This document shows positions 6,825 to 19,323 of a DNA stretch of 21,484 nt, one piece after another. Position 1 is the stretch's first letter; each line of letters starts with the position of its first letter. The notes below the pieces were generated by a model, which was not told where the DNA came from, did not search any database, and saw only the letters and a program-made list of their open reading frames with translations. The position numbers were made by a program, and so were the translations under genes. The DNA comes from Promethearchaeota archaeon Loki_b32 (GTDB taxonomy: Archaea; Asgardarchaeota; Lokiarchaeia; Sigyniarchaeales; SOKP01), in contig NJBH01000050.1 in NCBI GenBank assembly GCA_005223125.1, positions 1-21,484 of the forward strand, written 5' to 3'.

Positions 6825-9767
6825 TTGACAACCCAAGAACCCTTAGACTCCAAAGAGCCATTAGATACCGAAAAAATTGAGACCTTAATTTTAAATGGTT
6901 ATAATGAAAAAGCGTCAGAAGAAATATTTAGTATTATTGAAAGATATGAAAACCATTCAAATAAAGAAATTATATATCGAAGTCTTAGTTTATTAAATTT
7001 AATTTGTGATAAATCACCGGAAATCTCAGAGAGAACAATAAAATCTATTAATCATTTTGTTAATGATTCTGATTCGTGGATTAGATTAGTTTCATTAGAA
7101 ATTTTATATCAAATAAGTCTCTTTAGACCGAATTTATTAATAGAATTGTTAAATAAAATTCGAGGGCGTGTTTACGACCATGATTCTTCTGTAAGGAGAT
7201 TGGCTGTAAAAATTATTGGTAATTTAATTTTATCTCTACATATAGATATATATGAATTACGAGAAATTATTGAAGAGTATACAGAAAAATTAATGGATAA
7301 TGATTGGAAAGTAAAATTAAATGTAATTAGAACAATTCAAAAGATTTTAAATCAGGACTATACTAAGATTAGGAATCTAGAACCGCTTTTATCAATGGTG
7401 ATAATAAATCTTAGAGATGAAGATGATGATGTTGCAAGAGCCGCCGCAGAACTCTTAAAAATTCATGGAACATATTTCTTAACAAAAGAAAAAATATTTT
7501 ATATTTTATTAAATCTTCTTTATAACGAGGAAAACAGAGTTAAAGAACTCATAATTTGGTTATTTGGAGAAATTGGGAAAGAAAAGTCATCAGAAATAAT
7601 ATCAATAATCCCAAAATTGATTAGTTTACTAAAGGAAAAAGATTATCGCATTCAATTAAAAGTTATTGAAGCTCTTGTTAATATTGCAGAAAATAACTTT
7701 GACCAAATCTGGGCAAATCTATTGCATTCAATATTAGAAGCTAATGATTCTAATTATAGAAATTCACTAATAAATGCTGTATTTCACCTATGCCGTCAAA
7801 ATATTACTGAAATATTTCCATATTTATTTGAAGAATTAGAAAATCCCTCTGAAAATATTAGAGAGAGCATTGCCTTAGTATTCAAACGATTGTTTGAAGA
7901 ATTTCAGATCGAAATAGAAAACGAAATAACCAAAATTTTATATCAACTGGAATCACGGTTTTGGAGAGAGAGAAAGAAAACCATAATATTATTACAAAAT
8001 ATATGTTTCATCTTAGAAAGTAAAAAGATCGCTATTTGGATTACGATTGAATTGACTAAAGCTTTAAAAATTGAAAAAGATCCAGAAGTTAAAGATGAAA
8101 TCATATATACATTGAAGAACATTCATACAAATTTTACTAATATTGATGAGGCTATTGGTAGAATTAATAATGAGTTATCTTTATTCCATAAGAGAATTAT
8201 TGAATTTCAGAAGATTCCCGCTCAATTTAGAGAAAAATTGAATTCCTATATTCAGGATTTTAAATTTAATGTTACAGAAATTCAACTGAATGAAAAATAC
8301 AATAAAATTTTAAAAAAAATCAAGAAATTTAATCATTTTATTAATAAATTCGATTATAAGAGGTTAGCTTTTGATTTAATTGAAGAATGGGACGAAACTC
8401 GAGTACAAATTATTGAGGAATTAAGTATTATTAAAGGGTTTATTTCAGAAATTTGTGAGGAAAAAAAAGCAGAATTTGTTTCAAATTTGAAAGAAAAAAT
8501 TAAGACTATAAGTAATCGTGTAGATGTATTGAAAGCCGAGTTTGATCACATAAAAGAGAATAAATTTGATAGTATTTTAAATGATCAAATATCGGATCTT
8601 GAACCTACCAATATTAGTGATGATAGACTTGGATACGTAACACAGATAAGAAAAAAATTATTCAATTTGGATAATAATATTAGAGATTTATTAATTGATA
8701 ATGTAGAATTTAACGAAATTTTTAAAATTCTTTTACAAAAATGGGTTGCAGTCAAAATTGAAATTCAAGAATATTTGAATGATTTAGATCGGCAAATTAA
8801 ATTAATGAAAGATAGATTATTTGAAACTGAAATTCCCGCTTCAATCAATGGGATAAATAATGAACTAAGCTTTCAACTGCTTCAAGGACATATCCAATCT
8901 ATTATTACCGAGAGAATAGAGGGGATGAAAAGATTTAATGAGGACTTTGATAAACTAGGTGATAAAATAGAAATCCTAATAAAAAAAAATGAATTTTCAG
9001 ATACAAAAATATTAATAGAATTGAATTCTACGCATATCCAGACCTACATTGAAGAAACAGAGAGACAGATTGATGTAATTCTAGGTAAGGAAAATTTTTT
9101 TGAAGATAATAACATATTTAACCTGTATATTAGACCTTTTCTTAACAAATTCAACGCTTCAAAAGAATTATTGATTAATAAATTAAAGCATTTTGTTAGA
9201 AAATCAAACAATAAGTTATATTTGAATCAAATTAAATATTATCTTAATGTTATTAATCCCATTAAATTAGATCTACTTGCTAATTATATCAAAATAGATG
9301 TCGAACCATTAAAAGACTTAGTTTTTAAATTCATAAGTAAAAATAAGCTAAAAGCTAAAATTATCAATGAGAAACTGTATTACCAACAAATTGGATCTGA
9401 AATCCTAGATTCTAAAGAAATTCTTTTTTTTAAGAACATAAAAACAATAGGTAACGAAATTTACCTGAATTTTAAATTAACAAATCCTTCTAATTTTGAT
9501 TTTAAAGATTTACAAATATCACTTAAAGTCCCATCTTACCTGAATCTCCAACGAAAAGAAAGTTTTCCGAAATTCCTTCAAATTAATGAATTGAAACCAG
9601 GTAAAATTTTTAAGTTCAATTATGTACTAAAAGTAGATAAACAAAAAGAGCTTAAAAAGAATTTATTTGATCCTACTGCCGATGAGATAAAACTTGATCT
9701 ATATTATAGGGACCAATTTGATATCGCTCGAAAGACCACTAAACACATTGATCTATTTATTTCATAA
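6825..9767 (+). CDS. Large HEAT-repeat protein with coiled-coil middle, PCI-like winged helix and C-terminal Ig-like (adaptin-ear-like) domain
   Basis: HEAT motifs (DSDSWIRLVS, DHDSSVRRLA, DNDWKVKLNV, DEDDDVARAA, EKDYRIQLKV, NPSENIRES); long helical middle; IKLDLLANYIKID.EPLKDLVFKFISKNKLKAKI; terminal beta pattern LNFKLTNPS...LKVPSYL...LKPGK...IKLDLYY. Confidence 0.85.
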   Translation: MTTQEPLDSKEPLDTEKIETLILNGYNEKASEEIFSIIERYENHSNKEIIYRSLSLLNLICDKSPEISERTIKSINHFVNDSDSWIRLVSLEILYQISLFRPNLLIELLNKIRGRVYDHDSSVRRLAVKIIGNLILSLHIDIYELREIIEEYTEKLMDNDWKVKLNVIRTIQKILNQDYTKIRNLEPLLSMVIINLRDEDDDVARAAAELLKIHGTYFLTKEKIFYILLNLLYNEENRVKELIIWLFGEIGKEKSSEIISIIPKLISLLKEKDYRIQLKVIEALVNIAENNFDQIWANLLHSILEANDSNYRNSLINAVFHLCRQNITEIFPYLFEELENPSENIRESIALVFKRLFEEFQIEIENEITKILYQLESRFWRERKKTIILLQNICFILESKKIAIWITIELTKALKIEKDPEVKDEIIYTLKNIHTNFTNIDEAIGRINNELSLFHKRIIEFQKIPAQFREKLNSYIQDFKFNVTEIQLNEKYNKILKKIKKFNHFINKFDYKRLAFDLIEEWDETRVQIIEELSIIKGFISEICEEKKAEFVSNLKEKIKTISNRVDVLKAEFDHIKENKFDSILNDQISDLEPTNISDDRLGYVTQIRKKLFNLDNNIRDLLIDNVEFNEIFKILLQKWVAVKIEIQEYLNDLDRQIKLMKDRLFETEIPASINGINNELSFQLLQGHIQSIITERIEGMKRFNEDFDKLGDKIEILIKKNEFSDTKILIELNSTHIQTYIEETERQIDVILGKENFFEDNNIFNLYIRPFLNKFNASKELLINKLKHFVRKSNNKLYLNQIKYYLNVINPIKLDLLANYIKIDVEPLKDLVFKFISKNKLKAKIINEKLYYQQIGSEILDSKEILFFKNIKTIGNEIYLNFKLTNPSNFDFKDLQISLKVPSYLNLQRKESFPKFLQINELKPGKIFKFNYVLKVDKQKELKKNLFDPTADEIKLDLYYRDQFDIARKTTKHIDLFIS

Positions 9768-9943
9768 TTACTTAAAACTTTTTGAAAAGTAATAGTAAAT
9801 TTTCTGACTATAGAATTTTATATAAGAATTACTTATAAAATGATATTGTTTATCCAAAAATTTAATAAATTATATGGAAAAAATTAATATATTCAACTAT
9901 TCTATATAATTCTACTAAAATTAACCTATCAAAATTACAGTTT

Positions 9944-9950
9944 GAGGTGA
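9944..9950 (+). promoter_or_regulatory. Shine-Dalgarno sequence of selD copy 1
   Basis: GAGGTGA ending 3 nt before ATG 9954. Confidence 0.8.
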
Positions 9951-9953
9951 ACA

Positions 9954-10988
9954 ATGCAAGAGTTAGAGAGTTATCGATTGACATTGCAAACAAAACTTTT
10001 TGGATGAAACTGTAAATTATCAGCTGATAAATTAGAAAAATTACTGACGAATGTTGGATTAAAAGGTGATATTGAAGATTCTGCTGTAATTCCTGTTCCA
10101 AATACTGATCTCCTTATGGTAAAAAATATCGATATTTTCACGCCGATTCTAGATGAACCTGAAATCATGGGAGAGATTGCCGCTGCTAATGTTGTTAACG
10201 ACGTCTTTGCTTTAAATGTCCAAGAGATATCAGGTATGCTTGTATTCTTGGGATTAAAGAAAAATATGCCAATGTACATTGCTGAAGGATTGTTAAAGGG
10301 AATTAAAAACTTCATGGAGAAAAAGATTCACTCCAAAGTTCTTGGAGGTCATACCATTTACTCGGAATGGCCGCTTATTGGAGGAGAGGCAAGCGGATTT
10401 GTGGAAAAGGACAAGCTTATCAAAAAAGATTTCGTAAAAGAAGGTGATAAATTAATCCTAACTAAACCAATTGGAAACCAAGCAATAATGGCAGCATACA
10501 GATTACAAAAAAACAATCCTGACCTATTAGAAAATTTTTCTATGAATGAAATTGAAGATTCTATAGATTTAGCTGTAAAATTAATGATAATGCCGCTTCA
10601 AGATGTCGTAAAAACAATACATACTTACAATGACATGTCATTCATTCATTCTATGACTGATGTAAGTGGTTTTGGTCTCGCGGGACATCTAAGAGAAATG
10701 CTTCAAAATTCAAAATTTTCAGCCATTATAGAGAAAATTCCTAGTATTAAACTGGCAAGTGAATTAGCTTATGAATTTAGTTATAAATATGATGACTGTG
10801 AGATGCCTGAAACCGCTGGGGGGATGCTTCTATCTGTAGATCATCAATACGCAGAAGAATTTTCACAAAGACTTAGTAGTGAATACGATGTGAAAAATTG
10901 GATTATAGGTACAATCGATAACATAAATAAACCTAATCATGTTCGCGTTTCTAAAAACGCCGAACATATTGAAATAATAAAAATCTAA
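9954..10988 (+). CDS. selD: Selenophosphate synthetase, selenoprotein (Sec18, TGA at 10005-10007), copy 1, 344 aa
   Basis: ATG 9954 is in frame with the track ORF at 10116: MQELESYRLTLQTKLFG-U-NCKLSADKLEKLL...EDSA...NIDIFTPI...ANVVNDVFA...GGHT...TDVSGFGLAGHL...ETAGGMLL. The TGA aligns with the catalytic Cys/Sec of SelD. SECIS follows the stop. Confidence 0.95.
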
Positions 10989-11060
10989 TGATGTCAATGA
11001 GATAAGCAAAAACACATTTTTGTGGGAGCTTATTGAGAAATCTGTTGTACAACAGCATCA
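10989..11060 (+). promoter_or_regulatory. Eukaryote-like SECIS element (3' UTR of selD copy 1) with an extra hairpin
   Basis: TGATG/CATCA basal helix; ATGA(G) 10997-11001 opposite TGAG 11034-11037 (tandem G.A core); ATAAGC/GCTTAT helix; unpaired A run 11008-11012; apical mini-stem CACA/TGTG; extra hairpin CTGTTG-TA-CAACAG 11042-11055. Confidence 0.88.
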
Positions 11061-11332
11061 AAGAATATTATTTTGTTTTTATTCCTCTGTTTTTTTATTA
11101 TATTTTAATATTTCTTTATCTATCGAGTTTTTCGATAAGTAATTTCGAAAAAATTAATAAATAATAAAAATTTATTCAATTACTTCTTGATTAAGAACTT
11201 TTTAGATGATTAGGAAAGTAGCTATTATATTCTCATAATTAAAATATTAAGTGTCTTAATGAATTATTTAAATAATTAAAAAATAGTTTTATAAACTTAA
11301 AATTCTAATAAAATAGATTAAGTAATCAGTGT

Positions 11333-11339
11333 GAGGTGA
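11333..11339 (+). promoter_or_regulatory. Shine-Dalgarno sequence of selD copy 2
   Basis: GAGGTGA ending 2 nt before ATG 11342; a TATA-like TTTTATAAA at 11287-11295 follows an A-rich tract. Confidence 0.8.
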
Positions 11340-11341
11340 AA

Positions 11342-12367
11342 ATGGAAAAATCAGAATATAGGCTTACCAAGGATGTAAAAATACACGGATGAAGCTGTAA
11401 ACTTGGACAAAACGATTTGAATGATTTGTTAGCCAAAGTAGGATTAGCAGGAGATATTGAAGATGCTGCAATAATACCTATACCAAATAGTGATTTGCTC
11501 CTTATCAAAAACATTGATATTTTTACTCCCATTATTGATGAGCCTGAAATAGCTGGAGAGATTGCTGCTTGTAATGTGACAAATGACATTTTTGCGATGA
11601 ATGTTCCTGAGATATCGGGTATGCTTGTTTTCCTTGCAATAAGCAAAAAAACTCCAATGAAAGTCGCAGAAGGAATTTTAAAAGGAATAAAATACTTTAT
11701 GGAAGAAAAGATAAATTCTAAAGTTGTTGGTGGACACACTATTTATAGTGAATGGCCATTAATAGGTGGAGAAGCTTCGGGGTATGTAAATAAGGATGCA
11801 ATTATTCAAAAACAAGGAGTTAAAAAAGGAGACAAACTAATTTTGACCAAGCCAATAGGACTGCAAGCTATTATGGCAGCATATAGGATTCTTAAAGATG
11901 TTCCTGAAATCTTAGAAAATTATTCTCAAAATGAACTTCAAAAATCAATCGATCTTGCTGTAAAAATTATGACAACTCCTAATCAAAATGTTGTAAAAAC
12001 AATACATTCGTACAAGGATTTTTCATTTATCCATGCATTAACTGATATTACAGGATTCGGCTTAGCTGGACATACTGCTGAAATGCTTCAAAATTCAGAT
12101 TTATCTGCGATAATTGAGACTGTTCCATCAATTAGGTTTTCTAAGGAATTATCTGATGAGCTAGGATATGCTTTTGATGATTGTTATTGCCATGAAACTG
12201 CGGGAGGAATGCTTCTTGCTGTTGATCCAGAAAAAGTGGAAGAATTTACGACTAGACTTACAAGTAATAGGATCTCTAACTGGATTGTTGGAAAAATCGA
12301 CAAAATTCAGCCGGGATTAGTCAGAGTTTCGGAAAATGTTCAAAATATTGAAATTACAAATATTTAA
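11342..12367 (+). CDS. selD: Selenophosphate synthetase, selenoprotein (Sec17, TGA at 11390-11392), copy 2, 341 aa
   Basis: ATG 11342 is in frame with the track ORF at 11417: MEKSEYRLTKDVKIHG-U-SCKLGQNDLNDLL...EDAA...NIDIFTPI...ACNVTNDIFA...GGHT...TDITGFGLAGH...ETAGGMLL. The N-terminus resembles the archaeal (Methanococcales-type) HGUxCKL motif. Confidence 0.96.
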
Positions 12368-12368
12368 A

Positions 12369-12438
12369 GATGTTAATGATATAAGCTTAAACATTATAAA
12401 TGGGGGCTTATTGAAAATTCCACCTGCGAGGTGGCATC
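12369..12438 (+). promoter_or_regulatory. Eukaryote-like SECIS element (3' UTR of selD copy 2) with an extra hairpin
   Basis: GATG/CATC basal helix; ATGA(T) 12376-12380 opposite TGAA 12412-12415; ATAAGCTT/GGGCTTAT helix; AAA 12389-12391; apical mini-stem CATT/AATG; extra hairpin CCACCT-GCG-AGGTGG 12420-12434. Confidence 0.9.
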
Positions 12439-19161: not shown

Positions 19162-19295
19162 GGGGACTTGGTGTAGTTTTCCAAGCAATATCGCTTAGTA
19201 AGCACAACCCGGTGGCACAGCAGGCTCCAGATCCTACAAGCAAAAGCTGTTCCGTGGACACCTGTCGGTCGGGGGTTCAAATCCCTCAGTCCCCA
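19162..19295 (+). tRNA. trnW: tRNA-Trp (CCA) with two introns (19177-19207 in the D-loop; 19231-19259 or 19232-19260 in the anticodon loop)
   Basis: Acceptor GGGGACT/AGTCCCC+A; D stem GTGT/GCAC; anticodon stem GCAGG/CCTGT with loop CT-CCA-GA; variable CGGTC; T arm GGGGG-TTCAAAT-CCCTC. Removing 31 + 29 nt gives a 74-nt cloverleaf. CCA end not encoded; a T-tract follows. Confidence 0.88.
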
Positions 19296-19323
19296 CTTTT
19301 TCAAATTACTTAGAAAGAAATAT

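Follow-up and report, generated by a model that had tools for sequence, protein, structure and literature searches.

Why would an archaeon keep two selenophosphate synthetases (SPS), both of them built around selenocysteine (Sec)? This question is raised by a stretch of DNA from Promethearchaeota archaeon Loki_b32 (contig NJBH01000050.1, 21,484 nucleotides, here referred to as the window), in which two selD genes lie in tandem. SelD is a selenoprotein and also the enzyme that enables selenoprotein synthesis. An initial annotation, made from the sequence alone, had described both genes as recoded at an in-frame UGA, each with an upstream ATG, intact Lys, Asp and Asn motifs and a Sec insertion sequence (SECIS) of its own. 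All of these features were recovered where it had placed them. Our preferred explanation, to which we assign a probability of about 0.8, is that both would be functional Sec-containing SelD genes derived from one old duplication, with selD2 as the ancestral housekeeping gene and selD1 as a derived accessory copy. The duplication lies inside one Lokiarchaeia (Promethearchaeia) family, and the structure, recoding signals, age, asymmetry and purifying selection of the pair are documented by the results reported here, as is the Sec machinery of the genome.

The source genome (G000) is a metagenome-assembled genome (MAG) with an assembly size of 4.13 Mb, a completeness of 95.5% and a contamination of 4.6%; the selD pair is located on its contig C16. 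Comparisons within the genus were based on a codon alignment of 46 selD genes (21 selD1 among them), a SECIS alignment of 45 untranslated regions (UTRs) and a detailed comparison of the locus in 24 genomes. The wider distribution was taken from a 400-genome sample of the phylum.

Structure and family membership of the two selD genes

Both genes are encoded on the same strand and are separated by 353 nt (Table 1). The proteins share 65% identity (222/342, E 1e-168), and nucleotide identity amounts to 66%. The 76 identities in a central block of 99 aa that had been counted by hand were reproduced: windows from residues 45-56 contained 76-77 identities, and the best 99-aa window contained 77. The low identity, the location on one contig and the occurrence of the same pair in closed chromosomes and other genomes confirmed that the genes are diverged paralogs and not an assembly duplicate. 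A third selD was not found in the 4.13-Mb assembly.

Both proteins passed the cut-off of 125 bits of the NCBIfam SelD model TIGR00476 with scores of 180.9 (selD1) and 195.3 bits (selD2). With the archaeal model NF010705 they scored 251.7 and 286.1 bits, respectively, slightly below the cut-off of 291. The domains PF00586 (AIRS) and PF02769 (AIRS_C) were above the gathering score in both. The nearest solved structures were those of human SEPHS1, Leishmania SPS2 and the SelD proteins of E. coli and A. aeolicus. Residues D41, D59, N78, D82 and D235 of selD2 aligned to D69, D87, N106, D110 and D265 of human SEPHS1, and these four metal-binding Asp and the Asn are likewise present in selD1. The loop motif with Sec and Lys (G-U-x-C-K, U standing for Sec) is kept in all orthologs of both paralogs with a readable N-terminus. 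A replacement of Sec or Cys by another residue, as in SPS1-type proteins, was not seen, with TGA present in 46/46 genes of the genus and in the sister genus as well.

Read with translation table 11, the longest open reading frames (ORFs) open past the TGA, at 10116 for selD1 and 11417 for selD2, and hence downstream of the catalytic loop. The expectation that gene callers would cut off the catalytic N-terminus held for selD2, the NCBI record of which is an N-terminally truncated product of 316 aa. For selD1, the corresponding truncated product of 290 aa was not found in the same protein collection. The deposited annotation leaves out the Sec and Lys of the active site, and standard pipelines thus make wrong selenoproteome and pathway calls for this lineage.

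UGA recoding and SECIS elements

A Shine-Dalgarno (SD)-like motif was found within 20 nt 5' of the ATG preceding the TGA in 46/46 genes of the genus. Purifying selection also acts on the short peptide upstream of the TGA: the ratio of nonsynonymous to synonymous polymorphism (pN/pS) is 0.06 for selD1 and 0.31 for selD2. Together with the invariant TGA column, the SD-like motif and the constrained peptide are therefore more than chance.

The two SECIS are homologous elements of 70 nt, each starting 2 nt after the stop codon of its own gene. They consist of an outer helix (GAUG/CAUC), the AUGA...GA core and a 6-bp upper stem, followed at the apex by an invariant AAA (A-rich bulge) and a 3-bp ministem, the arrangement of type II. 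An extra hairpin separates the 3' core strand from the outer helix, and the element closes as a three-way junction. This 3' hairpin is compensatory between the copies, reading CCACCU/AGGUGG in selD2 and CUGUU/AACAG in selD1. Both elements have the core of Asgard type II elements, GA...[G/A]A preceded by AU/GU, in the 3' UTR.

RNAalifold, applied to the 45 UTRs, returned the structure that we had drawn by hand plus two further base pairs in the 3' hairpin. In the alignment 98.8% of the cells were paired, six pairs showed double compensatory changes, and the covariation was matched by none of 500 shuffles. In the ministem 11 double changes from CG to UA were counted. The 5' G-A and the 3' G-A of the core were invariant, the following 3' base being G or A. 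Furthermore, a covariance model trained on the genus matched only these two sites, both members of its training set, among the candidates scored in the genome. In 22 selD genes held out from training, which belong to the sister genus or to further genera of this family, the same model located the element exactly at the stop codon. An Rfam scan of the window matched no SECIS family, even at E <= 10. We infer that each SECIS would direct Sec insertion at the upstream UGA of its own gene.

A SECIS of the bacterial type, located within the coding sequence, was also considered and was rejected; the folds right after the UGA were no better than those of shuffled sequence.

In some relatives the elements deviate from this picture. 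The SECIS of selD2 in genome G013 (L063) is quite different in sequence with its architecture kept: an outer helix CUCCAAA/UUUGGAG, AUGA, an 8-bp stem, a 13-nt A-rich loop, GA and then the 3' hairpin. This suggests a wholesale replacement with the structure preserved. The selD2 3' UTRs of G015 and G020 (L065, L070) carry a SECIS 3' hairpin of selD1-type sequence (CCGUUGCACAACGG), which suggests local gene conversion between the UTRs of selD1 and selD2. Additionally, the selD2 ortholog of another genome of the genus (G233:C1:758857-759903) contains two in-frame TGA codons in an open frame of 362 aa; the extra one may encode a second Sec or stem from an insertion.

Sec-decoding machinery in the genome

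The search of the genome for Sec machinery, which the initial annotation had proposed as a check, recovered SepSecS, an EFSec/SelB-like gene, a PSTK-like gene and tRNA-Sec(UCA). In the profile search SepSecS scored 370.4 bits. The EFSec/SelB-like gene (TIGR00475; 241.9-242.5 bits, cut-off 242.25) shares its contig. The tRNA-Sec gene (G000:C57 ~28519-28656, minus strand, corresponding to L019:10505-10656) adjoins SepSecS and is located ~5 kb from EFSec, a layout in agreement with the description of Lokiarchaeum by Mariotti et al. (2016, MBE, PMC4989117).

In the fold of the 153-nt tRNA-Sec precursor the acceptor stem has 9 bp and the D stem 6 bp; the anticodon is UCA, the variable arm is long, the end reads G-CCA, and the D loop and the T loop each contain an inserted hairpin. 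It was found by scanning the contig of SepSecS and EFSec. ARAGORN missed it with and without the intron mode, and it reached only 23.9 bits against RF01852; both the failure of the standard tools and the low score are due to introns. The best RF01852 match of the genome (L004:1500-1601, minus strand, on G000:C29) was a false lead, namely a tRNA-Gly(UCC) whose T-loop region carries an insert of 36 nt. Across all 4.1 Mb of the assembly, ARAGORN detected just 11 tRNAs without introns, and most tRNAs of this genome thus carry introns.

Other consumers of selenophosphate were searched for as well. SelU (TIGR03167), YqeB and YqeC were not found in the 95.5%-complete genome, and for SenB nothing in the genome was above the cut-off, the matches being to generic glycosyltransferases only. 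The division of labour suggested initially, with one copy for Sec synthesis and the other for the supply of selenouridine or a selenium cofactor, was thus not borne out.

Distribution of the gene pair

The synteny comparison within Lokiarchaeia gave the same order of selD1 and selD2 in two genera. In 20 of the 24 genomes of the genus selD1 is followed by selD2 on one contig, and both genes are intact in 19; in the twentieth, G021, selD1 is broken. Two of these 20 pairs are located on single-contig assemblies or closed chromosomes (G006, G023). The pair was split by a contig break in one further genome, and the remaining three carried selD2 alone at a contiguous locus.

In the 400-genome sample both copies were present in ~38 of 48 selD-bearing genomes of the same genus and in ~22 of 41 of the sister genus. 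The remaining genera of the family and the other families had one Sec-selD of the G-U-S-C-K type. A true double Sec-selD was therefore confined, in this sample, to two genera of one Lokiarchaeia family. Among the genomes sampled no selD1 was seen without selD2: selD1 is lost or broken in some species, selD2 is never missing where selD1 is present, and genomes with selD2 only exist and retain SepSecS.

Second selD matches were also obtained in family f31 and were rejected as Sec paralogs. These are SelD-like proteins of ~760-780 aa without a TGA, which match residues 3-270 of selD2.

One disrupted selD1 deserves description. In genome G021 an insertion of 32 nt (L071:2981-3012), which contains a palindromic hairpin of 7 bp, directly follows the Sec TGA and shifts the frame. 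A bulge-helix-bulge intron was considered and discarded, as inspection by hand gave no arrangement of 3-nt bulges and a 4-bp helix and no canonical motif. Judged by its sequence, this selD1 is probably a disrupted gene or an assembly artefact.

The spacer between selD1 and selD2 ranges from 213 to 411 nt in the genus and measures ~1.68 kb where a gene of the HGD-D family (PF06050) is inserted. This gene encodes 429-432 aa and is 77-87% identical between genomes. Five genomes of two genera have it between their two selD copies: L056:4172-5461 (G007), L054 (G005), L058 (G008) and, in the sister genus, L129 and L130. In G024, which is without selD1, the HGD-D gene (L074:4177-5475) is located directly upstream of selD2. 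The source genome has no HGD-D ortholog (best match 29% identity). The arrangement may reflect an ancestral selD1-HGD-D-selD2 layout or a functional link.

Phylogeny and selection

The selD1 clade, with 26 orthologs, received a support of 100/100 and is set off by a stem of 0.24 substitutions per site. The selD2 sequences have almost no common stem in the tree. The approximately unbiased (AU) test did not reject a scenario in which selD was duplicated once, before the two genera separated from their common ancestor (p = 0.21). The grouping of selD1 with one long-branched single-copy sequence in the tree is not trustworthy, and selD1 is not placed relative to the single-copy genera because the family forms an unresolved polytomy.

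Within the clades the ratio of nonsynonymous to synonymous substitution rates (dN/dS) was 0.075 in selD1 and 0.097 in selD2; dS itself was close to saturation or past it (median dS >1 per clade). A ratio near 1 in one copy, which had been named in advance as a sign against a working pair, was seen in neither. Residues fixed specifically in selD1 were S19N (or D, right after Sec), A233S, T238S, N215L and L175N. Of these, A233S and T238S fall in the H-A-x-T-D-x-T-G-F-G motif around a metal-binding Asp (TD-x-S-GFG in selD1). The loop motif differs accordingly between the orthogroups: G-U-N/D-C-K in selD1 and G-U-S-C-K in selD2, the latter being common to all single-copy relatives.

Proposed roles of the two copies and alternative explanations

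According to our preferred explanation, translation would begin at the SD-led ATG of each selD, and the UGA 16-17 codons past this ATG would be decoded as Sec by the tRNA-Sec, PSTK, SepSecS and EFSec of the cell. Decoding would be directed by the type-II, eukaryote-like SECIS right after the stop codon of each gene. selD2 would represent the ancestral housekeeping enzyme, which supplies SepSecS and is sufficient alone. selD1 would be a derived, constrained and dispensable copy with all catalytic residues kept and with changes beside Sec and the metal-binding Asp. Most likely it would still make selenophosphate, under other conditions or with another partner for selenium delivery. The genes are probably separate transcription units, as suggested by the SECIS that each has of its own and by the oligo-T runs in the spacer.

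Based on these sequence comparisons, a specialisation of selD1 fits better than pure redundancy. Subfunctionalisation, as proposed in the initial annotation, is made plausible rather than proven by the long selD1 stem, the fixed changes adjacent to the active site and the repeated loss of selD1.

Several observations weigh against our explanation. Folded as single sequences, the UTRs were not significantly better than shuffled ones (z = -1.4, -1.0), and the support for the SECIS is therefore comparative evidence. The PSTK-like gene (TIGR03574) scored 137.9 bits, well under the curated NCBIfam cut-off of 290.5, so that PSTK is likely but not certain to be present in the genome. Six members of the genus are without any selD match, five of which retain SepSecS. 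A loss of the Sec trait in these six was rejected, since five keep SepSecS and the missing selD genes are thus probably gaps in the MAGs. Most of the genomes compared are MAGs with 3-9% contamination, which makes calls of absence soft.

Other explanations of the pair have to be weighed against these data. The two proteins might form an obligate or preferred heterodimer, with selD1 as a modulatory subunit and not an independent enzyme. selD2 often occurs on its own but selD1 was never observed to do so, the genes remain adjacent in two genera, and SelD is known to dimerise via an 8-stranded barrel with the active site (ATP site) shared between the chains (PMC7595633). However, a purely regulatory subunit would not need the Sec, Lys, Asp and Asn that are strongly constrained in selD1, and an accessory selD1 explains the co-occurrence equally well; we consider such a heterodimer unlikely. 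selD1 might also be neofunctionalised and, as a Sec-dependent enzyme, deliver activated selenium (or sulfur) to a pathway beyond Sec-tRNA synthesis, in analogy to SenC or to the SelD that serves SelU. The long stem, the residues fixed at Sec+1 and within TD-x-T-GFG and the orthologous HGD-D-family gene between the copies in five genomes of two genera would agree with this, and an acquired new function has been raised by Huang et al. (2024, PMC11227280). But S to N, T to S and A to S are all conservative exchanges, the source genome lacks an HGD-D ortholog, and SelU, YqeB, YqeC and SenB were not found in it or stayed below the cut-off, so that we regard neofunctionalisation in this form as rather improbable. 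In a broader version selD1 would be either a neofunctionalised Sec-enzyme or the obligate heterodimer partner of selD2, and would take its selenium from a separate donor or pass it into a new pathway. This we hold to be possible, albeit doubtful; selD1 might then work with the HGD-D-family gene that is found between the selD genes in some species. If true, the locus would be the Asgard counterpart of the SPS1/SPS2 splits that recurred in animals, with Sec kept in both copies.

The pair could instead be simply redundant, the duplicate being kept for the dosage of SelD in a large selenoproteome with functions alike. All catalytic features are present in both copies, their dN/dS is similar, and selD1 is dispensable in several species. 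Nevertheless, redundant duplicates are seldom kept across two genera with saturated dS, and the divergence is strongly asymmetric with clade-specific fixed residues; redundancy thus appears to us quite improbable. There is also some ground for suspecting a strain mixture, an assembly duplicate, a UGA that is a true stop or a pseudogene: the deposited product is truncated, the source MAG has 4.6% contamination, and the G021 selD1 is frameshifted by its 32-nt insertion. Against this, the copies on the one contig are only 65% identical, the pair occurs in closed chromosomes (G006, G023) and in >25 other genomes, and upstream peptide, SD motif, TGA and SECIS are all conserved. Moreover, the catalytic Sec and Lys are located in the very part that is absent from the truncated protein. 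An artefact or a non-functional pair is effectively refuted by these comparative data.

Comparison with known systems

The general rule that prokaryotes have one selD, from which the initial annotation started, holds with a reservation. By Huang, Xiao and Zhang (2024, ISME J, PMC11227280) the presence of two or more selD is described as rare in prokaryotes, and 51 organisms of Loki- and Thorarchaeia are reported to have at least two. The multiple Sec-encoding selD genes of these Asgard genomes represent the same phenomenon as our locus. The Asgard selD genes mostly carry type-II elements resembling eukaryotic SECIS (eSECIS), and the suggestion was already made that selD might have a new function or play a more active role (PMC11227280). 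The pair is real and conserved in two genera, but already known in kind. Because multi-copy selD of Asgard archaea has been published (PMC11227280), our finding mainly refines known biology. A tandem layout, two orthogroups, an asymmetry of divergence and loss, and dN/dS values do not occur in the passages of PMC11227280 used here, and the word 'tandem' is absent from its main text. What is added is the tandem layout, the two orthogroups with their asymmetry and the estimates of selection, none of which is contained in the passages used of PMC4989117, PMC11227280 and PMC4561486.

The type-II model of Huang et al. has a search pattern of 6-14 bp for the upper stem and a stated length of 7-15 bp (PMC11227280). 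The upper stem of 6 bp found here is within the search pattern and shorter than the stated model. For Lokiarchaeota a Sec-SPS with a distinct, type-II-like lokiSECIS has been described by Mariotti et al. (2016, PMC4989117). Sec occupies the homologous position in that SPS, and its 3'-UTR element likewise combines an AUGA...GA core with a short main stem, A-rich nucleotides and an additional stem at the apex. There, SPS is treated as single-copy, with only a fragment of a Loki gene available, and the apical extra stem is the only one described in the section used, whereas our elements also have an outer helix and a co-varying 3' hairpin. With the eukaryotic type II SECIS the elements share the AUGA/GA core of the kink-turn type, unpaired adenines above the upper stem, the ministem and the location in the 3' UTR. 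They differ by a much shorter upper stem (6 bp), the start 2 nt past the stop codon, the added hairpin that separates the 3' core strand from helix I, and the lack of an Rfam match.

The HdrA-VhuD (FrhD) selenoprotein pairs of Asgard archaea are likewise adjacent on one strand. According to PMC11227280 and PMC4989117 they have one shared SECIS after the second gene, in contrast to one for each gene in the selD pair.

In metazoans, too, a Sec-SPS was duplicated and one copy then diverged asymmetrically, giving SPS1 and SPS2 (Mariotti et al. 2015, Genome Res, PMC4561486). Animal SPS1 has Thr, Arg, Gly or Leu in place of Sec and has lost selenophosphate synthesis, as stated there. Unlike metazoan SPS1, both archaeal copies still have Sec, Cys+2 and Lys+3 in all of the species that were compared.

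A pair of Sec paralogs that has been kept for so long is a natural experiment on the other roles of SelD, the question that also stands behind animal SPS1. To our knowledge, SelD is the one Asgard selenoprotein family that is widely common to eukaryotes. The type-II SECIS with its extra hairpin is a compact candidate for a reporter study of the transition from archaeal to eukaryotic Sec recoding.

Features of the locus and neighbouring genes

Table 1. Coordinates of the selD genes, their Sec codons, SECIS elements and flanking signals in the window
Feature	Position	Strand	Details
SD-like GAGGTGA and spacer before the selD1 ATG	9936..9953	+	SD-like motif <=20 nt from ATG in 21/21 selD1 orthologs
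selD1 (derived paralog, Sec18)	9954..10988	+	344 aa; ATG 9954, TAA 10986-10988
selD1 Sec codon TGA, codon 18, motif F-G-U-N-C-K	10005..10007	+	only codon in this column, 46 genes
selD1 SECIS, type II	10990..11059	+	AUGA 10997-11000, GA 11035-11036; 3' hairpin 11042-11055; covariance model R1 96.4 bits
AT-rich spacer behind SECIS 1; contains oligo-T runs and, ahead of selD2, an SD-like GAGGTGA	11060..11341	+	read from the sequence
selD2 (ancestral-type paralog, Sec17)	11342..12367	+	341 aa; ATG 11342, TAA 12365-12367
selD2 Sec codon TGA, codon 17, motif H-G-U-S-C-K	11390..11392	+	only codon in this column, 46 genes
selD2 SECIS, type II, like architecture	12369..12438	+	AUGA 12376-12379, GA 12413-12414; covariance model R1 86.3 bits

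Directly upstream of selD1, at 6825-9767 of the window (+), a protein of 980 aa is encoded which contains HEAT repeats and gave weak matches to Adaptin_N and Cnd1. By its sequence features it is a eukaryote-like solenoid protein. Further downstream, at 19162-19298 (+), a permissive Rfam scan returned a weak match to tmRNA of the tRNA clan (E 0.0019, 17 bits). ARAGORN reported no tRNA in the window, and the segment may be an intron-containing tRNA.

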